Positions 9,660 through 27,189 of a stretch of 47,573 bases of DNA are shown in pieces (position 1 is the stretch's first letter; every line of letters starts with the position of its first letter). A model generated the notes under the pieces. It worked only from the letters and a program-made list of their open reading frames with translations. It did no database searches and had not been told where the DNA came from. Location: sequence record PX132564.1; one strand, 5' to 3'. Both the position numbers and the translations under genes were made by a program. The DNA comes from a phage.

Positions 9660-10082
9660 ATGTTCCTGAAAACCGAATCATTTGAATATAACGGCGTGAC
9701 CGTCACGCTTTCTGAACTGTCAGCCCTGCAGCGTATTGAGCATCTTGCCCTGATGAAACGGCAGGCAGAACCGGCGGGATCCGACAGCAACCGGCAGGTT
9801 ACTGTGGAAGACGTCATCAGAACCGGCGCGTTTCTGGTGGCGATGTCCCTGTGGCATAACCATCCGAAGAAGACGCAGATGCCGTCCATGAATGAAGCCG
9901 TTAAACAGATTGAGCAGGAAGTGCTTACCACCTGGCCCACAGAGGCAATTTCTCATGCTGAAAACGTGGTGTACCGGCTGTCCGGTATGTATGAGTTTGT
10001 GGTGAATAATGCCCCCGAACAGGCAGAGGACGCCGGGCCTGCAGAGCCTGTTTCTGCGGGAAAGTGTTCGACGGTGAGCTGA
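9660..10082 (+). CDS. G: tail assembly chaperone G
   Basis: 140-aa ORF MFLKTESFEYNGVTVTLSELSALQRIEHL..., lambda gpG-like. Confidence 0.9.
   Translation: MFLKTESFEYNGVTVTLSELSALQRIEHLALMKRQAEPAGSDSNRQVTVEDVIRTGAFLVAMSLWHNHPKKTQMPSMNEAVKQIEQEVLTTWPTEAISHAENVVYRLSGMYEFVVNNAPEQAEDAGPAEPVSAGKCSTVS
10058..10064 (+). promoter_or_regulatory. -1 programmed ribosomal frameshift slippery heptamer G GGA AAG (G to G-T)
   Basis: GGGAAAG lies in the G reading frame as G|GGA|AAG just before the G stop, and the T frame is open from here. Confidence 0.8.
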
Positions 10083-10498
10083 GTTTTGCCCTGAAACTGG
10101 CGCGTGAGATGGGGCGACCCGACTGGCGTGCCATGCTTGCCGGGATGTCATCCACGGAGTATGCCGACTGGCACCGCTTTTACAGTACCCATTATTTTCA
10201 TGATGTTCTGCTGGATATGCACTTTTCCGGGCTGACGTACACCGTGCTCAGCCTGTTTTTCAGCGATCCGGATATGCATCCGCTGGATTTCAGTCTGCTG
10301 AACCGGCGCGAGGCTGACGAAGAGCCTGAAGATGATGTGCTGATGCAGAAAGCGGCAGGGCTTGCCGGAGGTGTCCGCTTTGGCCCGGACGGGAATGAAG
10401 TTATCCCCGCTTCCCCGGATGTGGCGGACATGACGGAGGATGACGTAATGCTGATGACAGTATCAGAAGGGATCGCAGGAGGAGTCCGGTATGGCTGA
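10064..10498 (+). CDS. T: tail assembly protein T (made as G-T fusion by -1 frameshift)
   Basis: -1 frame ORF overlapping the end of G with no independent RBS; lambda gpT-like sequence. Confidence 0.8.
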   Translation: MFDGELSFALKLAREMGRPDWRAMLAGMSSTEYADWHRFYSTHYFHDVLLDMHFSGLTYTVLSLFFSDPDMHPLDFSLLNRREADEEPEDDVLMQKAAGLAGGVRFGPDGNEVIPASPDVADMTEDDVMLMTVSEGIAGGVRYG

Positions 10499-14080: not shown

Positions 14081-14824
14081 ATGACACAGACAGAATCAGC
14101 GATTCTGGCGCACGCCCGGCGATGTGCGCCAGCGGAGTCGTGTGGCTTCGTGGTGAGAACGCCGAAGGGGGAAAGATATTTTCCCTGCGTGAATATCTCC
14201 GGTGAGCCGGAGGCGTATTTCCGGATGTCGCCGGAGGACTGGCTGCGTGCACAAATGCAGGGGGAGGTTGTGGCACTGGTCCACAGCCACCCCGGTGGTC
14301 TGCCCTGGCTGAGTGAGGCTGACAGGCGGCTGCAGGTGCAGAGTGATTTGCCGTGGTGGCTGGTCTGCCGGGGGGCGATTCACAAGTTCCGCTGTGTGCC
14401 ACATCTTACCGGGCGGCGCTTTGAGCACGGGGTGACGGACTGTTACACGCTGTTCCGGGATGCATACCATCTGGCGGAAATTGAGATGCCGGATTTTTAT
14501 CGCGGGGATGACTGGTGGCGTAACGGCCAGAATCTCTATCTTGAAAATATGGAGGCGACTGGTTTTTACCGTGTCGCACTGACAGAGGCGCAGCCGGGCG
14601 ATGTGCTGCTGTGCTGTTTTGGTTCATCGGTGCCGAATCATGCCGCCATTTACTGTGGTGATGGCGAGCTGCTGCACCATATTCCTGAACAACTGAGCAA
14701 ACGAGAGAGGTATACCGACAAATGGCAGCGACGCACACACTCCCTCTGGCGTCACCGGGCATGGCGCGCATCTGCCTTTACGGGGATTTACAACGATTTG
14801 GCCGCCGCATCGACCTTCGTGTGA
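14081..14824 (+). CDS. K: tail tip assembly protein K
   Basis: MTQTESAILAHARRCAPAESCGFVV..., lambda gpK-like; start at internal ATG of track ORF 14039-14824. Confidence 0.85.
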   Translation: MTQTESAILAHARRCAPAESCGFVVRTPKGERYFPCVNISGEPEAYFRMSPEDWLRAQMQGEVVALVHSHPGGLPWLSEADRRLQVQSDLPWWLVCRGAIHKFRCVPHLTGRRFEHGVTDCYTLFRDAYHLAEIEMPDFYRGDDWWRNGQNLYLENMEATGFYRVALTEAQPGDVLLCCFGSSVPNHAAIYCGDGELLHHIPEQLSKRERYTDKWQRRTHSLWRHRAWRASAFTGIYNDLAAASTFV

Positions 14825-15363
14825 AAACGGGGGCTGAAGCCATCCGGGCGCTGGCCACACAGCTCCCGGCGTTTCGTCAGAAACTGAGCGACGGCTGGTA
14901 TCAGGTACGGATTGCCGGGCGTGATACAGGTGAAACGGAATTATCAGCCCGTCTTAATGAACCGCTGGCAAATGGTGCTGTGATCCATATCGTGCCGCGT
15001 CTGGCAGGAGCCAAAAGTGGCGGTGTGTTTCAGGCTGTGCTGGGGGCGGCTGTTATGGCGGTTGCTATATGGATGCCGGGGGTAGGAATTATGGCGAGTA
15101 ATCTGCTGTTTTCTCTCGGTGCCAGTATGACGCTTGGCGGTGTTGCACAGATGCTGGCCCCTAAACCCAGAACCCCCCGCACACAGACAACGGATAACGG
15201 CAAACAGAACACCTATTTTTCTTCACTGGATAATATGGTTGCCCAGGGCAATGTTCTGCCCGTTCTGTACGGTGAAATGCGCGTGGGATCACGTGTGGTA
15301 TCTCAGGAGATCAGCACAGCAGATGAAGGTGATGGTGGTCAGGTTGTGGTGATTGGTCGCTGA
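14722..15363 (+). CDS. I: tail tip assembly protein I
   Basis: MAATHTLPLASPGMARICLYGDLQRFGRRIDLRV..., lambda gpI-like, overlapping K 3' end as in lambda. Confidence 0.85.
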   Translation: MAATHTLPLASPGMARICLYGDLQRFGRRIDLRVKTGAEAIRALATQLPAFRQKLSDGWYQVRIAGRDTGETELSARLNEPLANGAVIHIVPRLAGAKSGGVFQAVLGAAVMAVAIWMPGVGIMASNLLFSLGASMTLGGVAQMLAPKPRTPRTQTTDNGKQNTYFSSLDNMVAQGNVLPVLYGEMRVGSRVVSQEISTADEGDGGQVVVIGR

Positions 15364-15381
15364 TGAAAAACGTTTTATGTG

Positions 15382-15402
15382 AAACCGCCTCCGGGCGGTT
15401 TT
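15382..15402 (+). terminator. hairpin AAACCGCC-tcc-GGGCGGTTTT between I and J (likely weak or attenuating)
   Basis: Perfect GC-rich inverted repeat followed by TTTT; J lies immediately downstream. Confidence 0.35.
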
Positions 15403-15423
15403 ATCGTTTATGGAGCATGACGA

Positions 15424-18400
15424 ATGGGTAAAGGCAGCAGTAAGGGGCATACCCCGCGCGAAGCGAAGGACAACCTGAAGTCCACGCAGCTGCTGAGTGT
15501 GATCGATGCCATCAGCGAAGGGCCGGTTGAAGGTCCGGTGGATGGATTAAAAAGCGTGCTGCTGAACAGTACGCCGGTGCTGGACAGTGAGGGGAATACC
15601 AATATATCCGGCGTCACGGTGGTGTTCCGGGCCGGTGAGCAGGAGCAGTCACCGCCGGAGGGATTTGAATCCTCCGGCTCCGAGACGGTGCTGGGTACGG
15701 AAGTGAAATATGACACGCCGATCACCCGGACCATCACGTCGGCAAACATCGACCGTCTGCGCTTTACCTTCGGTGTACAGGCACTGGTGGAAACCACCTC
15801 AAAGGGAGACAGGAATCCGTCGGAAGTTCGCCTGCTGGTTCAGATACAGCGTAACGGTGGCTGGGTGACGGAAAAAGACATCACCATTAAGGGCAAAACC
15901 ACCTCGCAGTATCTGGCCTCGGTGGTGGTGGATAACCTGCCGCCGCGCCCGTTTAATATCCGGATGCGCAGGATGACGCCGGACAGCACCACAGACCAGC
16001 TGCTGAACAAAACGCTCTGGTCGTCATACACCGAAATCATCGATGTGAAACAGTGCTACCCGAACACGGCACTGGTTGGCGTGCAGGTGGACTCGGAGCA
16101 GTTCGGCAGCCAGCAGGTGAGCCGTAATTATCATCTTCGCGGGCGCATTCTGCAGGTGCCGTCGAACTATAACCCGCAGACGCGGCAATACAGCGGTATC
16201 TGGGACGGAACGTTAAAACCGGCATACAGCAACAACATGGCCTGGTGTCTGTGGGATATGCTGACCCATCCGCGCTACGGCATGGGGAAACGTCTTGGTG
16301 CGGCGGATGTGGATAAATGGGCGCTGTATGTCATCGGCCAGTACTGCGACCAGTCGGTGCCGGACGGCTTTGGCGGCACGGAGCCGCGCATTACCTGTAA
16401 TGCGTACCTGACCACACAGCGCAAGGCGTGGGATGTGCTCAGTGATTTCTGCTCGGCGATGCGCTGTATGCCGGTATGGAACGGGCAGACGCTGACGTTC
16501 GTGCAGGACCGACCATCAGATAAGGTGTGGACCTATAACCGCAGTAATGTGGTGATGCCGGATGATGGCGCGCCGTTCCGCTACAGCTTCAGCGCCCTGA
16601 AGGACCGCCATAATGCCGTTGAGGTGAACTGGATTGACCCGGATAACGGCTGGGAGACGGCGACAGAGCTCGTGGAGGATACGCAGGCCATTGCCCGTTA
16701 CGGCCGTAACGTCACGAAGATGGATGCCTTTGGCTGTACCAGCCGGGGGCAGGCACACCGCGCCGGGCTGTGGCTGATTAAAACGGAGCTGCTGGAAACG
16801 CAGACCGTGGACTTCAGCGTGGGTGCTGAAGGGCTTCGCCATGTACCGGGGGATGTCATTGAAATCTGCGATGATGACTATGCCGGTATCAGCACCGGTG
16901 GTCGTGTGCTGGCGGTGAACAGCCAGACCCGGACGCTGACGCTCGACCGTGAAATCACGCTGCCATCCTCCGGTACCACGCTGATAAGCCTGGTTGACGG
17001 AAGTGGCAATCCGGTCAGCGTGGAGGTTCAGTCCGTCACCGACGGCGTGAAGGTGAAAGTGAGCCGTGTTCCTGACGGTGTTGCTGAATACAGCGTATGG
17101 GGGCTGAAGCTGCCGACGCTGCGCCAGCGACTGTTCCGCTGCGTGAGTATCCGTGAAAACGACGACGGCACGTATGCCATCACCGCCGTGCAGCATGTGC
17201 CGGAAAAAGAGACCATCGTGGATAACGGGGCGCACTTTGACGGCGAACAGAGTGGCACGGTGAATGGTGTCACGCCGCCCGCGGTGCAGCACCTGACCGC
17301 AGAAGTCACCGCAGACAGCGGGGAATATCAGGTGCTGGCGCGATGGGACACACCGAAGGTGGTGAAGGGGGTGAGCTTTATGCTTCGCCTGACCGTGGCA
17401 GCGGATGACGGCAGTGAGCGGCTGGTCAGCACGGCCAGGACGACGGAAACCACATACCGCTTCAGGCAACTGGCGCTGGGGAACTACAGGCTGACAGTCC
17501 GGGCGGTAAATGCGTGGGGGCAGCAGGGGGATCCGGCGTCGGTATCGTTCCGGATTGCCGCACCGGCAGCGCCATCGCGGATTGAGCTGACGCCGGGCTA
17601 TTTTCAGATAACCGCAACGCCGCATCTTGCCGTTTATGATCCGACGGTACAGTTTGAGTTCTGGTTCTCGGAAAAGCGGATTGCGGATATCAGGCAGGTT
17701 GAAGCCAGCGCGCGTTATCTTGGTACGGCGCTGTACTGGATAGCCGCCAGTATCAATATCAAACCGGGCCATGATTATTATTTTTACATTCGCAGTGTGA
17801 ACACCGTTGGCAAATCGGCATTTGTGGAGGCTGTTGGCCAGCCGAGTGATGATGCATCCGGCTATCTGGATTTTTTCAAAGGAGAGATAGGGAAAACCCA
17901 TCTGGCTCAGGAGTTGTGGACGCAGATTGATAACGGTCAGCTTGCGCCTGACCTGGCTGAAATCAGGACGTCCATTACGGATGTCAGCAATGAAATCACG
18001 CAGACCGTCAATAAGAAACTGGAAGACCAGAGTGCAGCGATCCAGCAGATACAGAAGGTTCAGGTTGATACAAATAATAACCTGAACAGCATGTGGGCTG
18101 TGAAGCTGCAGCAGATGCAGGACGGACGCCTTTATATCGCGGGTATTGGTGCCGGTATTGAGAATACCCCTGACGGTATGCAGAGTCAGGTGCTGCTGGC
18201 GGCGGACAGGATTGCGATGATTAATCCTGCGAATGGCAATACAAAGCCGATGTTTGTTGGGCAGGGCGATCAGATATTCATGAACGAAGTGTTCCTGAAA
18301 TATCTGACGGCTCCCACCATTACCAGCGGTGGCAATCCCCCAACGTTTTCACTGACACCTGATGGTCGACTTTCTGCGAGAAATGCGGATATCAGCGGTA

Positions 18401-18906
18401 ACGTGAATGCGAACTCCGGGACGCTCAATAATGTCACGATTAACCAGAACTGTCGGATTCTGGGAAAACTGTCAGCTAACCAGATTGAAGGTGATATTGT
18501 CAAAACGGTGGGAAAAGCCTTTCCGAGAAATGGCAGTTATGCCAGCGGTACAATAACGGTCACTGTGTACGATGACCAGGCTTTTGACCGTCAGATAGTC
18601 GTCCCCCCCGTTCTGTTTCGCGGTGGTAAGCATGAAAACTTCAACAGCAACAACCAACAGTCATACTGGTATTCAACCTGTAAGCTGCAGGTGCTGAAGA
18701 ACGGACAGGAAATCTTTCAGCAACCCGCGACGGATGTCAGCAGGGTATTTTCATCAGTCATTGATATGCCTGCCGGACACGGCCATGTCACCCTGACTTT
18801 CAATGTTTCTTCATATGGTGCAAATAACTGGACGCCAACGACCAGTATCAGCGACCTTCTTGTTGTCGTGATGAAGAAATCAACAGCCGGCATCAGTATC
18901 AGTTGA
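15424..18906 (+). CDS. J: central tail fibre / host specificity protein J
   Basis: 1160-aa ORF, lambda gpJ-like N-terminal and central regions; C-terminal receptor-binding part not verified. Confidence 0.93.
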
Positions 18907-18926
18907 ATTTTAAAACCCAAATTCGG

Positions 18927-18951
18927 GCACCAGAAATGGTGCCTTTTTTAT
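18927..18951 (+). terminator. rho-independent terminator after J
   Basis: GGCACC-agaaat-GGTGCC followed by TTTTTTA. Confidence 0.6.
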
Positions 18952-18958
18952 TTGTGGA

Positions 18959-20986
18959 GTGAATATGGCAGTACAGATTTCAGGTGTGCTGAAAGACGGT
19001 GCAGGAAAACCGATACAGAACTGCACCATTCAGCTCAAAGCAAAACGTAACAGCACCACAGTTGTGGTGAACACGGTGGCCTCAGAAAATCCGGATGAAG
19101 CCGGACGTTACAGCATGGATGTTGAGTATGGCCAGTACAGCGTCGCCCTGCTGGTTGAAGGTTTTCCGCCTTCACATGCCGGGACCATCACCGTGTATGA
19201 GGATTCTAAGCCGGGGACATTGAATGATTTTCTGGGCGCTGCAACAGAAGATGATGTTTGTCCGGAGGCACTGTATCGTTTTGAAAAGATGGTGGAAGAG
19301 GCGGCACGCAACGCTGAAGCCGCCTCTCAGAGCGCAGCGGCAGCAAAGAAATCAGAAACAGCAGCGGCATCGTCCAGGAACGCGGCGAAAACATCAGAGA
19401 CGAATGCAGGTAACAGCGCGAAAGCGGCAGCTTCTTCAAAAACAGCCGCACAAAACGCAGCAACAGCGGCAGAACGTTCAGAGACAAATGCCCGTGCGTC
19501 AGAAGAAGCCTCCGCAGACAGTGAAGAGGCTTCCCGCCGTAATGCAGAGTCAGCCGCTGAAAATGCCGGAGTCGCCACCACAAAAGCGCGGGAGGCCGCA
19601 GCAGACGCAACAAAGGCCGGGCAGAAAAAGGATGAGGCTCTGTCGGCAGCGACACGAGCTGAAAAGGCGGCAGACCGCGCAGAAGCCGCAGCGGAAGTGA
19701 CTGCAGAGCCCTGTGCGAATATAGTGCCGCCGCTGCCTGATGTGTGGATACCGTTTAACGATTCACTGGATATGATTACGGGTTTTTCGCCATCTTATAA
19801 AAAGATAGTTATTGGTGACGATGAAATAACAATGCCAGGCGACAAGATTGTTAAGTTTAAACGTGCTTCAACAGCAACGTATATTAATAAGTCCGGCCAA
19901 CTCAAGCTTGCTGAAGTTGACGAACCGCGATTTGAGCGCGATGGCTTATTGATTGAAGGACAGAGGACAAATTATCTGAGGAACTCAAATAAACCAGACT
20001 CATGGACTGTTCATTCCGCACTGAATAAAACATTTGGCACTGATAAACAGGGGTTCAATTATGCCACGGTGACACCCACGGAAAGTATAGTGGGAACAAC
20101 AGGTGGCTATACTGTGCATGGTGTGGTTGCAGCAGACAGATTCCCGCTGGCAAGTGGTGAATGTTTCACTTTTTCGTGCCGGGTTAAAGGCGCTAAAGCA
20201 CGATGCAGGTTAAGAGTTTCAGTTATTATTGGTGGAACAGATACCTTCTCTGCTGACTCTTATCTTGATCTGGATACCCGGATCGCAACAGTAAGCGGTA
20301 ATACATCCCTTATAACAGCCAAAGCTGAACAACAGGGCGAGTGGACCTACTATGAGGCCACTTATACAGCTAATACGGACATTGATACCGTTAACTGTGC
20401 TTTTTATATGACAAATAAAATAAGTAATGAGACATTCTATGATGACTCAACATTAACCATGACGACGCCGCAAATTGAACTGGGCAATACGGCATCGTCA
20501 TTTATTGTAACTACAATGCCAACAACACGCGCAAGTGATGTAGTTACTATCCCATCGCAGAATAACCTGTCAACACGGCCTTTTACGGTATTGTGCGAAG
20601 TAAGCAGGAACTGGAGTACACCGCCCAATGTTGCGCCAAGGATATTTGATGTTGGAGGGCACAGTATTGATGATAATTATTTATCGCTGGGGTTTGTTGC
20701 AACAGGAAAGATAAGCGCCAACGTAGGAATGGTTCAGCCACAAATTGCCTCAGATGGAGAAAGGTTCATTGTGGGTGTGAGAGCTAAATCTGATTTATCA
20801 GTAAATGCAATATGCAATGGTAATTATACAACAAACCTTAATGGTAAAATATTTGGAGTTACAGCAACATCGTACCGGTTTGGTGGGCAGACCGCAGCAG
20901 GAACGCGTCATTTGTTTGGACACATCAGAAATTTCAGAGTCTGGTTTAAAGAATTAAATGACAGGCAAATCAAGGAGGCAGTATGA
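18959..20986 (+). CDS. stf: side tail fibre protein: lambda Stf-like N-terminus plus Ala/Ser-rich repeat shaft plus unrelated AT-rich C-terminal distal domain
   Basis: First ~110 aa MAVQISGVLKDGAGKPIQNCTIQLKAKRNSTTVVVNTVASENPDEAGRYSMDVEYGQYSV... resemble lambda Stf; distal ~400 aa are AT-rich and not lambda-like. Confidence 0.8.
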   Translation: MNMAVQISGVLKDGAGKPIQNCTIQLKAKRNSTTVVVNTVASENPDEAGRYSMDVEYGQYSVALLVEGFPPSHAGTITVYEDSKPGTLNDFLGAATEDDVCPEALYRFEKMVEEAARNAEAASQSAAAAKKSETAAASSRNAAKTSETNAGNSAKAAASSKTAAQNAATAAERSETNARASEEASADSEEASRRNAESAAENAGVATTKAREAAADATKAGQKKDEALSAATRAEKAADRAEAAAEVTAEPCANIVPPLPDVWIPFNDSLDMITGFSPSYKKIVIGDDEITMPGDKIVKFKRASTATYINKSGQLKLAEVDEPRFERDGLLIEGQRTNYLRNSNKPDSWTVHSALNKTFGTDKQGFNYATVTPTESIVGTTGGYTVHGVVAADRFPLASGECFTFSCRVKGAKARCRLRVSVIIGGTDTFSADSYLDLDTRIATVSGNTSLITAKAEQQGEWTYYEATYTANTDIDTVNCAFYMTNKISNETFYDDSTLTMTTPQIELGNTASSFIVTTMPTTRASDVVTIPSQNNLSTRPFTVLCEVSRNWSTPPNVAPRIFDVGGHSIDDNYLSLGFVATGKISANVGMVQPQIASDGERFIVGVRAKSDLSVNAICNGNYTTNLNGKIFGVTATSYRFGGQTAAGTRHLFGHIRNFRVWFKELNDRQIKEAV

Positions 20987-21261
20987 AAGATTTAACTTTG
21001 AAATTTCCTGGTAACAGAGAGTTTAAATCCTTCCTGTCATCTCTTGACTGGGAGGAGGATGAAGACCTCCAGAATAAACTGTTAGTCGATGAAATTGGTT
21101 TCACCTACACAGAAACAGGGGTAACAGAAGAGGGAGAACCTGTCTGTGTCCGGAATGACGGTTATTTTGTCAACATTCGCATTCTTGATGACTTGTTTGA
21201 TGTTTCTGTATTCTCTGATTATGTCGTGGAGCTGGAAACACCGCTTCGGGAATGGAGCTGA
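20983..21261 (+). CDS. hypothetical acidic 92-aa protein, translationally coupled to stf (possible fibre assembly factor)
   Basis: ATGA stop/start overlap with stf; no family recognised. Confidence 0.4.
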   Translation: MKDLTLKFPGNREFKSFLSSLDWEEDEDLQNKLLVDEIGFTYTETGVTEEGEPVCVRNDGYFVNIRILDDLFDVSVFSDYVVELETPLREWS

Positions 21262-21273
21262 AAGGAGGAAATA

Positions 21274-21567
21274 ATGGATATAAGCCCCTTACTTCATGCA
21301 CTTTGTGCTGTGGCTGCGCAGATACTGGTTGGTCTTTTTACCGGAAACTGGGCTTACGGAGCGATAGCCGGTTGTACGTTCTTCATTGCGCGTGAACATA
21401 CCCAGGCAGAATATCGCTGGATTGAAATGTTCGGGCATGGCAAGCGAATGAATATGCCGTGGTGGGGCGGTTTTGATCCGCGAGCTTGGGATGTGGCAAG
21501 CCTGATGGATTTTGCTGTGCCGGTGGTGGCGTGTCTGCTGGTCTGGCTGTTGGTTAATCGTGGGTGA
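21274..21567 (+). CDS. hypothetical small membrane protein (about 3 predicted helices)
   Basis: 97-aa ORF with hydrophobic segments AVAAQILVGLFTG, AIAGCTFFIA, FAVPVVACLLVWLLV; RBS-like AGGAGG upstream. Confidence 0.4.
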   Translation: MDISPLLHALCAVAAQILVGLFTGNWAYGAIAGCTFFIAREHTQAEYRWIEMFGHGKRMNMPWWGGFDPRAWDVASLMDFAVPVVACLLVWLLVNRG

Positions 21568-21658
21568 AAAAAGGTGAGCTGTATATGCAACGGAGGAAGA
21601 AACCCCGTTGCTGGAAGCCAGGAAAAAGTATCGGGTGTTGCTGTCCTCGGATGTTGTG

Positions 21659-22516
21659 CTAATTGGGTGATAACAGATCCTGTGTATGGGAGTTTCCCTT
21701 TTTGCGTGCGTTGATGCTGGTAACGGCAAACGTCATGATGAACAAAACCGCGAATAAGACGACAATCGTCGGAGCTGGTGCGCTGTCGATAAAAAAGGAC
21801 AACCAGACACCAGTCATTGACACTATTACCGATATGCCAGTCGCCAGTAGGAGCGCAATATGAAAGCGTTGTGTCAGGAGTACCGCAATGGCGCCAGGCG
21901 CAATGAGCAGAGAAATGGAGAGAATGATACCTACCGCTTTCAGCGTCGCCACAATGGTCAGAGAGACCATGCACAGCAGCCCATAATGCAGCCATCTCGT
22001 ATGCAAACCGCTTACCTGCGCCTGTTGATAATCAAAGCTGAACAGCAAAAAATCCCGCCATTTTACGCTAATAACAAGTGTAACCAGCCCGGCAATAATC
22101 ATCGTCTGGATTATATCGCCGATGGTTATCCCGAGCATGTCGCCGAAAAGAATATGGTCAAGATGTACGTCTGGTTTGACTGCAATATACAAGATCAGAC
22201 CTGCGGCAAACATGCCAGAAAAAACAATCCCCATCACTGTATCTTGCTTGATTCGGCTGTTGTCTTTCAGGTATCCCGTCGCCACCGCACAGAATACTCC
22301 GGCGACGAATGCCCCTGTAGCCAAAGGTAACCCCAGAATCCAGGCAAGCACGATGCCAGGAAAAACCGCATGACTCATCGCGTCACCCATCAGTGCCCAA
22401 CCTTTCAGGACCAGAAAGACCGACAGCAGCGCACAGGGTATGGAAACTACCAGTGAAATCAGCAGTGCGTGACTCATAAAGGTGAACTGCAGTGGCTCCA
22501 GTAATAATGCCATCAT
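21659..22516 (-). CDS. sitD: Mn/Fe ABC transporter permease SitD
   Basis: 285-aa polytopic membrane protein, last gene of a four-gene binding protein/ATPase/permease/permease operon. Confidence 0.85.
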   Translation of the reverse strand: MMALLLEPLQFTFMSHALLISLVVSIPCALLSVFLVLKGWALMGDAMSHAVFPGIVLAWILGLPLATGAFVAGVFCAVATGYLKDNSRIKQDTVMGIVFSGMFAAGLILYIAVKPDVHLDHILFGDMLGITIGDIIQTMIIAGLVTLVISVKWRDFLLFSFDYQQAQVSGLHTRWLHYGLLCMVSLTIVATLKAVGIILSISLLIAPGAIAVLLTQRFHIALLLATGISVIVSMTGVWLSFFIDSAPAPTIVVLFAVLFIMTFAVTSINARKKGNSHTQDLLSPN

Positions 22517-23370
22517 GAGCGATCCTCCAGCGCCTTATGCGCACGCCGACGATTTGCCAAAAGCCCATGGGTGGGCGCAAAGACAAATGCTAAAAGAAAC
22601 AGCAGTGTCTGCGCCACCACGATGATTCCACCTGTCGCGCCGTCCAGAAAGTAACTGACCCACGCGCCGAGGAAACTGGTTACACTGCCAATAGTTACAG
22701 CAATCATGAGCAGGCGGGGAAAACGATCGGTTAACAACCATGCTGTTGCACCGGGAGTCACCACCAGACAGATCACCAGAAAGGCACCAACCGTTTGCAG
22801 CGCCGCAACGGTCGAAACCGACAGCAGGGTGAAGAAGAGGAGTTTTAATCTGCCCGGATGCAATCCAATAGCACGGGCGTGATTCTCGTCGAAAAAGGTC
22901 ACCATAAGATCTTTCCATTTGAAAAAAAGCACGATGATCGAGAGAATGCCAATGATAGTGAGTTGCAGGATATCCGCCGGATCGATTGCCAGAATATTGC
23001 CCAGGACGATGGTCTGAATGTTCACAGATGTCGGGTTCAATGACACCATAAACAGCCCCAGGCCAAAAAAGGACGAGAAGATCAGACCGATGATGGCATC
23101 TTCTTTTAAGCGGGTGCGTTGGTTAAGAAACAGCATGCTGCCCGCAGCCAGTCCGCCGGAAAAGAAGGCTCCCAGAGAAAACGGAAGCCCCAGCATATAT
23201 GCCCCCGCAACACCCGGGACAATAGAGTGCGACAACGCATCGCCAATCAGCGACCAGCCTTTTAGCATCAGATAGCATGACAGGAAAGCGCAGAGACCGC
23301 CGACCATCGCCGAGACCCACATCGCATTGAGCATATATTCATAGCTGAAGGGTTCCAGTAGCACGTTCAT
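22513..23370 (-). CDS. sitC: Mn/Fe ABC transporter permease SitC
   Basis: 285-aa polytopic membrane protein, paralogous to the adjacent permease. Confidence 0.85.
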
Positions 23371-24194
23371 CTTTCTTCCCTCTGCACCGCTGACGGTCGA
23401 TGAGCCACAAAAGGGCGTTCATCGTCAGTAATAATGCTTTCTTCCGAGCCGTTAAGTGTGACATGGCGCAGTACGCCGCTAAAAGCCAGCTCTAGGTTCT
23501 CGGCTGTAAAAGTGGTGTCTGTCGGCCCGCTTGCCAGGACGGTGCCTTTGACCATGACCGTATAATCGCAAAATGTCGTGACGGATCCGAGATTGTGTGT
23601 TGAGACAAGCATCGTTTTGCCTTCCGCGCGTAACTCCCTCAACAGGCTGATGATTTTGGCTTCGGTTTTCACATCAACGCCAGTAAAAGGTTCATCCAGC
23701 AGGATCACATCACCCTGCTGTGCAATCGCTCTCGCCAGAAAGACGCGTTTCTTTTGTCCACCGGAAAGCTCGCCGATTTGTCGATGGCGAAAATTCACCA
23801 TATCGACACGTTCCAGCGCATCGGTGACAATTTGACGATCCCTCTTTTTGGCGATACGCAACATACCCATATGCCCATAGCGGCCCATCATCACCACATC
23901 TTCCACCAGTACAGGAAATGACCAGTCAACATCTTCTGACTGAGGGACGTAGGCAACCAGGTTTTTCTGTAACGCCTGTCGCGTGGGAATACCCAGAACA
24001 GATATCTTTCCGCTGGTCAGACGCACAAATCCCATAATCGCTTTAAACAACGTCGATTTTCCGGAACCGTTTACCCCAACCAGAGCGGCAATAGATCCAC
24101 TTGGTACTGTGAAGGATGCATCGCGCAGTGCTGTGTGCCCGTTACGCCAGGTGACAGTAACATCATTAACGACAATGCCTGCAGATTGCATCAT
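23367..24194 (-). CDS. sitB: Mn/Fe ABC transporter ATP-binding protein SitB
   Basis: Walker [13 protein letters not shown] signature LSGGQKKR, Walker B ILLDEP. Confidence 0.9.
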
Positions 24195-25108
24195 TATTTC
24201 TCCCTTTTCCCAGCTTTAATTCCCTGTACCAGCGTACTGGTAGTAACCTTAAGAAGGTCGATATACGTCGGTACCGGGCCGTTTTCTGTGCTCAGGGAAT
24301 CGACATAGAGCACACCGCCGTAGTGTGCGCCGGTTTCACGCGCAACCTGACGCGCTGGTTTATCGGAAATCGTACTCTCGCTAAAGACTGCCGGGATATG
24401 ATTTTTCTTAACTATATCAACAACCTTACGTACCTGCTGCGGTGTTCCTTGTTGATCGGCATTAATCGGCCACAGATAAAGCTCTTTTAGCCCCAAATCG
24501 CGTGCGAGATAAGAAAAAGCCCCTTCACTGGTGACCATCCATCGCTGATTCTCAGGGAGTTCCGTAATCTGCTTACGCAGGGGGGCAAGGGTTTGGGTAA
24601 TCTTGGCTTTATAAGTATCGGCATTGCGTTGGTAGGTTTGTGCATTTGCCGGATCGTATTTTATCAACGCATCACGAATATTATCGACGTAAATCAGAGC
24701 ATTATCTGGCGACATCCATGCATGGGGGTTAGGTTTGCCCTCATAGGGTCCTTCGGTGATCCCTACAGGCGTCACACCCGAAGAGACAATTACTTCTGGA
24801 ACCCCATTGAGATGCTGGTAAAAGCGTTGGAACCACAATTCCAGATTCATACCATTGGCGAGAATCAGTTGTGCCCCCTGCGCACGTTTAATATCGCCAG
24901 GGGTAGGCTGATACTCATGAATTTCTGCACCAGGCTTGGTTATGGATGAGACTTCTGCAGCATCTCCCGCCACGTTTTTGGCCATATCCGCGATGATGGT
25001 AAATGTTGTAATGACCTTGAATTTTTCAGTTGCACTTGCCTGAAATGCGATCGAGCAGGTGAGTGCGAGCCCCCCCAAGAGCATGGTTACTTTTTTTATC
25101 GAGTGCAT
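24194..25108 (-). CDS. sitA: periplasmic Mn/Fe-binding protein SitA
   Basis: 304-aa protein with signal peptide [26 protein letters not shown] and metal-binding-protein-like body. Confidence 0.9.
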
Positions 25109-25140
25109 AATTTAGTACCTATAGTGAGCAAAATTAGAAC

Positions 25141-25163
25141 AAATATAGCAACGGCTATGTTTT
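25141..25163 (-). promoter_or_regulatory. MntR-box-like palindrome upstream of sitA
   Basis: AAATATAGCAACGGCTATGTTTT contains the inverted repeat ATAGC-N4-GCTAT, close to the MntR box AAACATAGC...GCTATGTTT as I recall it. Confidence 0.5.
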
Positions 25164-25184
25164 ATAGCACAGCCTATACAAAAT

Positions 25185-25203
25185 GAAAATGATTATCATT
25201 AGC
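25185..25203 (-). promoter_or_regulatory. Fur-box-like sequence upstream of sitA
   Basis: GAAAATGATTATCATTAGC matches about 16 of 19 positions of GATAATGATAATCATTATC. Confidence 0.5.
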
Positions 25204-25502
25204 AGCTTTGAGGCCCAAAACAGGGATTAGGTTGTTTCCTGCTGGCGACGCGTTATTGAGGAAAAAAGTAAGGCAGCTAGTAGGCTTTGAAATAACGTTT
25301 TGCGGTTGGCTGATGCAATTTCGAGAGTGCATGTATTGAATGATTTCTAGCCGTTACTGATTTTCGTATTTTTTGTATGGGAGGATTTGCACCTCCCCCC
25401 ACCGAGCCTCCATGACTTTACTCCACTGTCTCTAGGGCTGCTGTGTGCCAGGAGCGGAAGCAGGGGGGCCAGAGACTCCTTAAAAGTTGATAGCTCGTTT
25501 TG

Positions 25503-25598
25503 CAGGGAGACTTACACGGTAAGCGTTATTCCGAAGAGCTTAAAATTGAAGCAGTCAAACGGGTTGTTGAGCGTGTTTATGCGCTGCCATCTGATTAA
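25503..25598 (+). pseudogene. possible IS3-family transposase OrfA N-terminal remnant
   Basis: Short frame ...GKRYSEELKIEAVKRVVERVYALPSD* resembles the N-terminal HTH motif (KRYxEEFKxEAV) of IS3-family OrfA; only about 30 codons, no downstream transposase. Confidence 0.3.
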
Positions 25599-25806
25599 TC
25601 GACGGAAGCAGTTCCGTTTGGTCTATGATGCAGTTGTCCGGCAGGCGCTCTGTGACGCAAAAGAACGATAGGAGTAGCATTGAAGTGAACGAGGTTATGC
25701 TTGTCTTATATTATCCTCTATTTTAAAAACATCAGCTGGTTGTGTAAGAGTTTTTATTGTTTTATCTTGTTGACTTTGCTTTTATGAAAACAGAGTGATT
25801 GATACA

Positions 25807-26565
25807 ATGAAAACCTTAAGTGGGAAAGAGTTTAGGAAATTATTTAATCGTTATGAGACAGGATTCTATCTAAGTGAGTTTGAATACTTAAAGGACTTTG
25901 ATCCTTTGTTTCCTGAATGCGTAGGGAAAGAATTAAAGTTGGGTTATAAACGAAAAGTTGATGTATGGTGCGAAGAGGATGCTGCGCTATATGCAGAATT
26001 TATAGCTACAAAAGAAAGGCTGAAAAGAGGCCGGTTAATCCTAAAAATAAACCAAGTGTGGTCGCGTGTATATCCTGCTTATATTTATGCAATTGAAGAA
26101 AGAATAAATGTCAGGGCAAAGGGGAGAGAGTCATTTAAGTATGAAACTGTGCAAGAAAAACAATGTAAACTTTCCATAATGTTAGATGGTCTGAAAGACC
26201 TTGAATGTGAAATAGCTATGATTTCAAGTGAGTTTGAAATTGAAAAACACTCTATGCACTATTTTTATATGATTTTTGATATTGAACGCTATATAAATGA
26301 CTGCAGTTACTTTGTTTTTTCTGCTGCTAAAGTTGTTAAAGGCGTGATTCAATGCATTGGTTACATTGACAAAAATAACAAAGCAAGTTGCGATGAATTT
26401 TATTCAGGCAGCTATGAATGCTTGGATGATGATCAGGAAACACTGAACTATTTAAATGAATCATGCGCAGAGGGTATAGACGCTGATAAAGATCTCATCA
26501 GGAAGAATGAGTTATTAGCCTTATCCCTGAAGGAATTGTATCAACTTCTCGTTTCAAAAAAATAA
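25807..26565 (+). CDS. hypothetical protein, AT-rich orphan (252 aa)
   Basis: Long uninterrupted ORF MKTLSGKEFRKLFNRYETGFYLSEFEYLKDFDPLF... with markedly lower GC than flanking phage DNA; AT-rich upstream with TTGACT -35-like hexamer; no family recognised. Confidence 0.55.
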   Translation: MKTLSGKEFRKLFNRYETGFYLSEFEYLKDFDPLFPECVGKELKLGYKRKVDVWCEEDAALYAEFIATKERLKRGRLILKINQVWSRVYPAYIYAIEERINVRAKGRESFKYETVQEKQCKLSIMLDGLKDLECEIAMISSEFEIEKHSMHYFYMIFDIERYINDCSYFVFSAAKVVKGVIQCIGYIDKNNKASCDEFYSGSYECLDDDQETLNYLNESCAEGIDADKDLIRKNELLALSLKELYQLLVSKK

Positions 26566-26907: not shown

Positions 26908-27024
26908 AAAAACGAACGTCAATGAAATCAAACGGTTGAATAAAGTTGATTTTGGCTAATACAAAGACAAGAAAATAATATTTATGATTAAATATCAGCG
27001 AGTTGAATACATAATTTTTATATA

Positions 27025-27189
27025 CTGCTGCGCCATATGGGTTGGACTGAAGCGGCTGACCTGATTGTTAAAGGTATGGAAGGCGCAATCAATGCCAAGA
27101 CCGTAACCTATGACTTCGAACGTCTGATGGAAGGCGCTAAACTGCTGAAATGTTCAGAGTTTGGTGACGCGATCATCAAGAATATGTAA
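27025..27189 (+). pseudogene. icd: phage-borne copy of the icd (isocitrate dehydrogenase) 3' end within attP
   Basis: Translates in frame to ...[54 protein letters not shown], the Icd C-terminus; no upstream icd body; lies just downstream of the int 3' end. Confidence 0.8.

Follow-up and report, generated by a model that had tools for sequence, protein, structure and literature searches.

The end of the tail operon in sequence record PX132564.1 is best explained as a phage 21-type locus that would encode a trimeric side tail fibre (Stf) tipped with lectin domains, a 92-aa partner protein coupled to it, and a separate 97-aa membrane protein of the "moron" type. The probability of this explanation as a whole is estimated at roughly 0.6. 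Its foundations, namely the gene structure, homologies, folds, mosaic breakpoints, gene linkage and purifying selection described below, are directly established. Throughout the text, the window denotes the entire stretch of DNA that was analysed, with a length of 47,573 nucleotides.

Organization of the Locus

The features of the locus, with the evidence for each of them, are the following:

15424–18906, + strand: J, central tail fibre or tip attachment protein, upstream context (7 Pfam J domains; gpJ annotation in an identical genome region)
18925–18944, + strand: terminator-like hairpin with a T-run in the J/stf gap (pattern scan and direct sequence reading)
18965–20986, + strand: stf, side tail fibre, 673 aa (unbroken ORF, GGAG ribosome-binding site, start matching lambda, PHROG 1419)
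18965–19357, + strand: lambda Stf-type N-terminal tail-attachment domain (Pfam PF08400, PDB 9E7M, lambda orf-401 match)
19292–19714, + strand: Ala/Ser-rich shaft (composition; similarity to the lambda and phage 21 shafts)
19724–19975, + strand: conserved neck of the distal module, Stf 256–339, PLPDVWIPFNDSL...LLIEGQRTN (cross-family identity)
19976–20533, + strand: lectin domain 1, Stf 340–525, head-spike-fibre or CBM-like beta-sandwich
20534–20983, + strand: lectin domain 2, Stf 526–675, LamG or ConA-like (Laminin_G_3 alignment below threshold; AF2)
19975–20874, + strand: cassette replaced relative to phage 21 (DNA similarity absent in blastn)
20983–21261, + strand: 92-aa acidic protein, PHROG 1361, constant partner of the fibre module (ATGA overlap, AAGGAGG, PHROG match, AF2)
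21274–21567, + strand: 97-aa small membrane protein, PHROG 1443, independent moron-like gene (PHROG match, hydropathy, conserved motifs)
21659–25108, − strand: sitDCBA iron/manganese transporter, prophage cargo bounding the locus (annotation of an identical genome region and of phage 21)

In this explanation, a lambdoid prophage of the phage 21 type is integrated at icd, and the region forms the end of its late (tail) operon. The stf gene lies directly 3' of J in this operon, with J ending at 18906 and stf starting at 18965. The sole content of the 58-nt gap between J and the stf ATG is the terminator-like hairpin; a terminator is annotated in phage 21 at the matching site. No lom gene is present in this gap, as the initial annotation had stated. 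The ribosome-binding sites are GGAG for stf and AAGGAGG for both small genes. The locus is ordinary for phage 21-like E. coli prophages, is already represented in databases and in this respect offers nothing new; 513 of 5426 complete E. coli genomes contain the region.

The Side Tail Fibre and Its Lectin Cassette

The mechanically defined stf reading frame runs from a GTG at 18959 to 20986. This position, given in the initial annotation, holds except for the start. The true start is almost certainly the ATG at 18965 (MAVQISG..., 673 aa), because GGAG is located 6 nt upstream, the start of lambda Stf agrees with it, and the database entries have 673 aa. From this start, the description of a fibre that begins like lambda Stf, continues into an Ala/Ser-rich shaft and ends in an AT-rich half unrelated to lambda is confirmed in each of its parts. 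The Pfam phage_tail_N domain (PF08400) covers residues 3–133 (E=2.8e-67, 225 bits vs a cut-off of 26.6), the N-terminus shares 73% identity over 158 aa with lambda orf-401 (residues 1–158), and the N-terminal domain matches residues 1–94 of the lambda tail fibre chain in PDB 9E7M (E=1.6e-49). In the shaft, which has low-complexity similarity to that of lambda, alanine and serine make up 49% of residues 111–250. Beyond approximately 19700, the GC content falls from 0.55–0.59 to 0.38–0.47, and a BLASTP comparison of the distal half with lambda orf-314 gave no significant similarity (E=0.23). The lambda-type N-terminus would plug into the tail tip, followed by the shaft and then by the conserved neck.

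Judged by its sequence, the distal module is nothing exotic but an allele from a large family already known. Stf matches PHROG 1419 (tail protein) with E=2e-294 and the NCBIfam "phage head spike fiber domain" (NF048003) with 65.7 bits vs a cut-off of 36, and the family that these profiles define is represented in 218 phage records and by over 2400 proteins in the databases. A family profile also matches the RcGTA protein Rcc01080 (PDB 6TB9) across Stf residues ~300–540 (E=2.7e-18), and the head-spike-fibre domain of Stf has a beta-sandwich fold of the lectin type. Structure prediction, proposed in the initial annotation as a check on the distal part, provided a fibre model of moderate quality, built from 11 sequences (AF2, pLDDT 66.8). 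Lectin domain 2 has a pLDDT of 52–83, and the neck, whose mean pairwise identity across phage families is 84%, has a pLDDT below 40 in the monomer model. The Laminin_G_3 profile (PF13385) aligns with Stf 526–672 over positions 4–151 of its 151 (E=3e-4 at 21 bits), with scores of 20–25 bits, which is below the cut-off of 27.6, and a fold search for residues 526–675 pointed to the LamG/pentraxin type.

The comparison with phage 21 supports, at the sequence level, the earlier suggestion that the receptor-binding module was swapped by recombination. In blastn, positions 14343–19974 align with phage 21 at 93.8% identity and positions 20875–26000 at 98.9%, while no alignment spans the approximately 900 bp in between (19975–20874). 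At the protein level, identity to the phage 21 fibre is 97% in the N-terminus, 98% in the shaft and 43% in the distal part. The lectin part may therefore be described as an exchangeable cassette, the one present here being unlike that of phage 21. Near-identical copies of the present allele excepted, no sampled allele exceeds 36% identity over residues 526–639; lectin domain 1 is 85% identical to its counterpart in a virulent T1-like phage. The two lectin domains would shuffle independently, with virulent phages included in the exchange.

Stf can be envisaged as a homotrimeric side tail fibre whose distal end bears two ConA-like lectin domains. For the homologue in phage IrisVonRoten, a homotrimer model with a pLDDT of 95.4 has been published, confident without the small protein, and from this homologue, Gp22, described as a proximal lateral fibre, a galectin-like domain protrudes that is regarded as a possible extra receptor-binding domain (PMC11990801). 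The most probable primary receptor for the lectin domains of Stf is a surface glycan (O-antigen, LPS or capsule), to which they would bind reversibly. This prediction of polysaccharide binding is based on the modelled fold and on the literature on relatives (PMC11990801, PMC8594841). The Stf lectins would engage the glycan first, and J would bind the terminal outer-membrane receptor.

The 92-aa Partner Protein

The small gene downstream of stf was correctly described as encoding an acidic protein translationally coupled to the fibre. Its start codon overlaps the stf stop codon (ATGA), and the protein has a pI of 4.05, with 22 Asp and Glu vs 8 Lys and Arg residues. It belongs to PHROG 1361 (E=1.6e-39). 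Its gene is found immediately 3' of a fibre gene in 144 phage records as well as in IMG/VR loci, and it stands behind the fibre module in 88 of the 88 loci with a readable flank, with its start either overlapping the stop codon of the fibre gene or adjoining it. The pairing spans lambdoid, Drexlerviridae (T1-like), Dhillonvirus, Queuovirinae (9g-like), T5-like and rV5-like phages.

The claim that no recognisable tfa follows stf also holds. The 92-aa protein is unmatched in Pfam and NCBIfam even at E values up to 10, and an hhalign comparison of its profile with lambda Tfa gave a probability of 0.1%. Sequence and profile searches of the PDB returned nothing for either small protein, and the fold of the 92-aa protein, modelled by AF2 with a pLDDT of 90, is unlike those of solved fibre chaperones. 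Among 1.8 billion representatives searched, 47 proteins, mostly standalone, were recovered, and in none of them was the 92-aa domain fused to a fibre. Two long matches to the domain (P0170 and P0202) were discarded as repeat-rich artefacts. Literature searches on the function of the phage 21 fibre, on the PhiR phages, on LtfA/LtfB and on receptor prediction turned up no mention of either small protein, and in the BASEL phage papers examined the 92-aa protein is not discussed and the fibre is modelled without it.

From this constant association, we infer that the 92-aa protein is an assembly or accessory factor dedicated to the fibre. The initial suggestion that the fibre module brings its own assembly factor is accordingly upheld as far as linkage is concerned; the gene itself falls outside the swapped cassette, and its product does not resemble known chaperones. 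The protein would be a cytoplasmic acidic alpha/beta protein, whose synthesis is kept level with that of the fibre by translational coupling and which would most likely act on the scaffold formed by the conserved neck and the C-terminal tail as an assembly factor or accessory subunit. In the genome it would occupy the place held in lambda by Tfa, a protein unrelated to it. Three points speak against this role: globular lectin domains often fold unaided, the trimer model of IrisVonRoten Gp22 was confident without the small protein, and the search described above turned up no fibre fused to the 92-aa domain. The 92-aa protein diverges in parallel with the neck (Spearman rho 0.73) and the tail (0.75), and less closely so with the two variable lectin domains (0.45 and 0.47). 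This correlation need not mean contact, since common descent and physical linkage could also produce it. A broader proposal, to which slightly less than an even chance is given, is that the protein founds an unrecognised class of assembly or adaptor proteins that are indispensable to the lectin-tipped lateral fibres of six or more siphovirus and myovirus lineages and recognise the neck and the C-terminal scaffold, not the receptor-binding surface. If this is true, lectin cassettes would be freely exchangeable without co-transfer of a chaperone.

A structural function is an alternative to a role in assembly, although an unlikely one. The 92-aa protein would then be a connector, or "knee-cap", joining a distal to a proximal fibre, and the two-gene locus would be a reduced form in which it is a mere cap or a leftover. 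The order proximal fibre, 92-aa gene, distal fibre in T5-like, T1-like and 9g-like phages and in one lambdoid phage (2G7b) agrees with this idea, as does the conserved N-terminal motif MxTxT[VIN]IPxDIxxLK of the distal fibre in these three-gene loci. In IrisVonRoten, the distal T-shaped fibre indeed attaches to the proximal one (PMC11990801). The C-terminal tail of the 92-aa model, conserved and unstructured, fits a docking peptide. However, the third gene is absent from phage 21 and from every IMG/VR prophage locus with a readable downstream flank, and the 92-aa gene remains intact in loci without it, under purifying selection (dN/dS 0.13–0.41). No distal-fibre gene or anchor motif is present anywhere in the window, and the motif is also missing from the gene that comes next in the rV5-like phage JeffSchatz. 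During the search of the window for a hidden distal fibre, a weak antisense match to a JeffSchatz protein at 9692–10096 was dismissed as spurious. By motif-based assignment, the distal fibre in three-gene loci has its own C-terminal intramolecular chaperone region (a conserved SDxxLK-type motif and a coiled tail), so that the first fibre is the sole component of these loci lacking one, an observation in favour of the assembly or accessory role.

The 97-aa Membrane Protein and the Integrity of stf

The last gene encodes, as initially described, a membrane protein, with hydrophobic segments at residues ~3–39 and 78–95, and it matches PHROG 1443 (E=2.4e-58). Its assignment to the fibre module did not stand: the gene is also located 3' of the unrelated P22-like tailspike and of the tfa of Halomonas phage phiHAP-1. 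On this gene-neighbourhood evidence, it is outside the module and independent of fibre type and phage morphotype. The protein would be a separate small inner-membrane "moron" that ends the receptor-binding-protein operons of several temperate phage types.

The initial annotation considered it a candidate for superinfection exclusion. A role in exclusion or lysogenic conversion, by which the entry of related phages would be blocked, is deduced mainly from position and is rather improbable. The ends of receptor-binding-protein operons are a common seat of conversion and exclusion genes, and the gene occupies the very end of such operons in lambdoid, P22-like and phiHAP-1-like temperate phages. 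In the P22-like phage Gally, the gene has the layout of a moron, with a terminator hairpin and a weak promoter-like site ahead of it. Its strong conservation (dN/dS mostly 0–0.3; invariant polar residues H8, R40, E41, E46, Y47, R48 and D79) is also in line with such a function. On the other hand, PADLOC, Pfam and NCBIfam gave no match for the protein and no known exclusion or defence family, and virulent jumbo phages of Aeromonas also have homologues, though weaker ones. In the window, the gene begins 12 nt past the 92-aa gene and no promoter-like site lies upstream, so it looks late-transcribed and not expressed in the lysogen.

That stf is a decayed pseudogene and the small ORFs its remnants, as the two incomplete fragments called by PGAP (RefSeq) in an identical genome region would imply, is very improbable and is rejected because the ORF is intact: it is uninterrupted over 2 kb, the full 673-aa protein occurs in hundreds of database entries, its distal 428 residues recur in the records of PhiR47_2 (host listed as E. 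coli C) and Lambda_ev058 with 100% and 99.8% identity, respectively, and both small genes are under purifying selection.

Significance

The practical value of these results is modest but real. Many E. coli prophages, among them those of ST131-type strains, carry this type of fibre, as do virulent phages of the therapeutic type. Its two lectin domains, as independently exchangeable cassettes with conserved recombination arms, may be useful for host-range engineering; if the 92-aa partner is needed for assembly, fibre-swapping designs must include its gene. For annotation, an intact stf that currently appears in RefSeq as two false pseudogene fragments can be corrected.

Comparison with Known Systems

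One of the related systems is the RcGTA head spike fibre Rcc01080 (PDB 6TB9), whose beta-sandwich domain is homologous to Stf ~300–540. In contrast to Stf, this spike is located on a capsid vertex and is not a tail fibre, and it has neither the Stf N-terminus nor the second, LamG-like domain. It is reported to have been studied, together with an extracellular polysaccharide receptor, as a protein that binds receptors (PMC10218006).

The proximal subunits of the lateral fibres of BASEL phages (IrisVonRoten Gp22 and KarlJaspers bas06_0037) have a homologous distal module, 43–68% identical overall, and the value of 85% for lectin domain 1 refers to KarlJaspers. A homologue of the 92-aa gene lies directly 3' of the fibre gene in these phages too. 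Unlike the window, both are virulent and possess a third gene, for the distal fibre with its intramolecular chaperone region; in Gp22, a lambda Stf-type N-terminus is undetectable.

The Stf/Tfa pair of lambda (Ur-lambda) shares with the present locus the N-terminal domain, the Ala/Ser-rich style of the shaft, the position after J and a small coupled downstream gene. The present locus differs in the lack of lom, in a distal half unrelated to orf-314 and in a downstream protein unrelated to Tfa.

The closest system is phage 21 (Jouyvirus, OL657228; CPT_21_22 to CPT_21_24). It differs in the lectin cassette, which is without DNA similarity, and in the distal protein module, which is only 43% identical. 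The 92-aa protein is 93% and the 97-aa protein 100% identical, and J, the terminator, stf, the two small genes, sitDCBA and the icd-type attachment site follow one another in identical order.

Gene Organization and Prophage Context

An ORF scan recovered J, stf, and the genes for the 92-aa and 97-aa proteins where the initial annotation had placed them. These features and the neighbouring prophage elements are listed below.

Features of the side tail fibre region
15424-18906, + strand: J (ORF scan)
18925-18944: terminator-like hairpin 3' of J (DNA reading and pattern scan)
18959-20986, + strand: stf, long ORF (ORF scan)
20983-21261, + strand: 92-aa ORF, in ATGA overlap with the stf stop codon
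21274-21567, + strand: 97-aa ORF (ORF scan)
21659-25108, - strand: sitDCBA iron/manganese transporter, prophage cargo
27022-27189: duplicated icd 3' end at the attachment site

ATG 18965 is almost certainly the true start of Stf, because the DNA reads GGAG 6 nt before it. This position agrees with the lambda Stf start, and the product (MAVQISG...) has 673 aa, as do the database entries of Stf. The gap between J and stf has no space for a lom gene, in line with its reported absence, and the ATGA overlap bears out the proposed coupling of the 92-aa ORF to stf. An AAGGAGG ribosome-binding site precedes both the 92-aa and the 97-aa gene. The GC content changes from 0.55-0.59 to 0.38-0.47 past ~19700, so that the distal half is indeed AT-rich. 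In an identical genome region, RefSeq/PGAP splits stf into two 'incomplete' pseudogene fragments (18965-19328 and 19961-20986). Because the 673-aa ORF is uninterrupted, this call looks like an annotation artefact arising from the two-family domain make-up of Stf.

The window aligns with a region annotated from terminase genes through J and the genes discussed here to sitDCBA, a truncated icd copy, and chromosomal genes; this identifies it as the late half of a lambdoid prophage sitting at icd. The sitDCBA genes are flanked by the tail fibre genes on one side and the icd 3' duplication on the other, as they are in phage 21. Of 5426 complete E. coli genomes, 513 contain the same 2.8 kb at a coverage of at least 80%. 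In some E. coli genomes (matches H1-H3), ISEc52 lies inside the locus and splits the match in two, and in phage 4A7 (L007 2917-5333) IS genes are found between stf and the 92-aa gene; the side-fibre locus is a recurrent IS target.

Mosaic Structure of the Fibre

The beginning of Stf is lambda-like, as first proposed: residues 3-133 fit the Pfam model phage_tail_N (E=2.8e-67), 158 aa align to lambda orf-401 at 73% identity, and the N-terminus also matches a lambda tail fibre fragment in PDB 9E7M. The shaft, described as Ala/Ser-rich, consists of 49% Ala+Ser, and the distal half proved unrelated to lambda, with no resemblance to orf-314 from about residue 256 (E=0.23). The distal 420 residues are a member of PHROG 1419, and residues 331-525 correspond to the NCBIfam 'phage head spike fiber domain'. 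This family spans 218 phage records across lambdoid, T1-like, Dhillonvirus, 9g-like, T5-like, and rV5-like phages, and over 2400 proteins in databases. A family profile built from 15 diverse members matches Rcc01080, the head spike fibre of RcGTA (PDB 6TB9, E=2.7e-18), and the last 150 Stf residues give a full-length but sub-threshold alignment to Laminin_G_3. The neck (256-339) is highly conserved and its monomer model is poor; the part of IrisVonRoten Gp22 homologous to it gave a homotrimer model with pLDDT 95.4 (PMC11990801). PMC11990801 describes Gp22 as a proximal fibre from which a galectin-like domain protrudes, and this domain could be an additional receptor-binding domain. Because of the Rcc01080 and Laminin_G_3 likeness and this galectin-like domain, glycan binding by the lectin-type tip of Stf is a reasonable prediction. 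More than one type of fibre scaffold seems to carry the distal module. In database proteins P0209 and P0213 it stands beside Pfam PF12571 and PF03406 (the latter a phage tail fibre repeat), not beside the lambda Stf N-terminus.

The initial annotation also proposed a swapped tip module, and comparison with phage 21 DNA (OL657228) agrees: identity is 93.8% for 14343-19974 and 98.9% for 20875-26000, while nothing aligned for 19975-20874. Protein identity to phage 21 Stf is 97% in the N-terminus, 98% in the shaft, and 43% in the distal module.

Mean pairwise identity of Stf segments among 49 distinct loci
256-339: neck, 84%
340-525: lectin domain 1, 53%
526-639: lectin domain 2, 52%
640-675: C-terminal tail, 79%

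The fibre tip is thus a swapped cassette, and within it each lectin domain is exchanged on its own, between arms that are conserved. Identity to the virulent T1-like phage KarlJaspers (L090) is 85% in domain 1 (19976-20533) and 33% in domain 2. Near-identical copies of the window allele aside, domain 2 is at most 36% identical to other sampled alleles. The sequences indicate that temperate and virulent phages exchange single lectin domains.

The 92-aa Partner Protein

The 92-aa protein is acidic, as initially described (pI 4.05), and belongs to PHROG 1361, a family of unknown function. It was found by tblastn in 144 phage records, adjoining a fibre gene in every record listed, and among 80 IMG/VR loci and annotated phages every locus whose flank could be read (88 of 88) has the same fibre module in the upstream gene. 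Across sampled loci the start of the 92-aa gene overlaps the fibre stop or adjoins it. A Seuratvirus and the rV5-like myovirus JeffSchatz carry small, divergent ORFs behind the module that also belong to the family (hhalign probability 98.5%). The family is small, with 47 standalone representatives and no real fusions among 1.8 billion proteins, and dN/dS values of 0.13-0.41 point to purifying selection. AF2 models it with confidence (pLDDT 90) as a small alpha/beta fold that has no significant neighbour in the PDB and whose BFVD matches are limited to uncharacterised phage proteins. By hhalign the protein is unrelated to lambda Tfa, consistent with the reported absence of Tfa.

The protein is 93% identical to its phage 21 counterpart despite completely different lectin domains, and 49% identical to that of KarlJaspers despite the similarity in lectin domain 1. 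Its divergence correlates better with that of the conserved neck (rho 0.73) and tail (0.75) than with that of the lectin domains (0.45 and 0.47). On these comparisons, the 92-aa gene lies outside the swapped cassette.

Virulent phages and the lambdoid phage 2G7b have a third gene behind the 92-aa gene, and it encodes a distal fibre. These distal fibres share an N-terminal motif, MxTxT[VIN]IPxDIxxLK, which is probably a docking peptide for the proximal fibre; it is kept despite very different receptor-binding parts.

Distal fibre genes with the N-terminal motif, by compared locus
L003 5289-7013
L004 4289-5344
L005 4292-4987
L006 4792-5829
L089 5120-6880
L090 5074-5751

In the C-terminal region of the distal fibres an SDxxLK-type motif is conserved and the tail is coiled; from these features the region is read as a putative intramolecular chaperone. 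Neither the window nor phage 21 has the third gene, and it is missing from all prophage loci whose downstream flank could be read. The main rival explanation is that the 92-aa protein is a pure connector. A role at the first fibre, either assembling it or serving as its accessory subunit, is favoured because selection on the 92-aa gene persists without the third gene and because distal fibres bring their own chaperone region. This constant partner is the one loose end at the locus that merits attention, its function apparently addressed by nobody.

The 97-aa Membrane Protein

Hydrophobic segments span residues ~3-39 and 78-95 of the 97-aa protein, and its invariant polar residues lie around the motifs REHTQAEYR and PWWGGFDPRAWD. 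The protein belongs to PHROG 1443, a family of unknown function, and matches no defence, Pfam, or NCBIfam family; dN/dS is mostly 0-0.3. The initial annotation had suggested that this membrane ORF possibly came with the fibre module, which the distribution of its homologues contradicts: a 79%-identical copy sits directly behind the tailspike gene in the P22-like phage Gally (L091 3289-3785), and a 36-39% identical copy directly follows tfa in Halomonas phage phiHAP-1 (L092 3501-3806). Gally and phiHAP-1 have quite different tail types. The occurrence of the gene is unrelated to fibre type; its behaviour is that of an independent moron that closes receptor-binding-protein operons. Upstream of the Gally copy lie a terminator hairpin and a weak promoter-like site; a pattern scan of the window found no promoter-like site for the 97-aa gene itself. 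Judged from gene position, a candidate exclusion role is plausible. In the prophage loci L029, L044, L045, and L046, the homologous ORF extends to 146 aa and lies 13-453 nt past the 92-aa gene.

Comparison with Phage 21

Phage 21 carries J, a terminator, a side tail fibre gene, the 92-aa and 97-aa genes, and sitDCBA in the same order, and its 97-aa protein is 100% identical. There the 92-aa product is annotated as a hypothetical protein and the 97-aa product as a 'putative membrane protein'; the genome announcement (PMC9119081) does not discuss the side-fibre, 92-aa, or 97-aa genes. For phage 21-type prophages this side-fibre locus is ordinary, and its fibre family has already been described.
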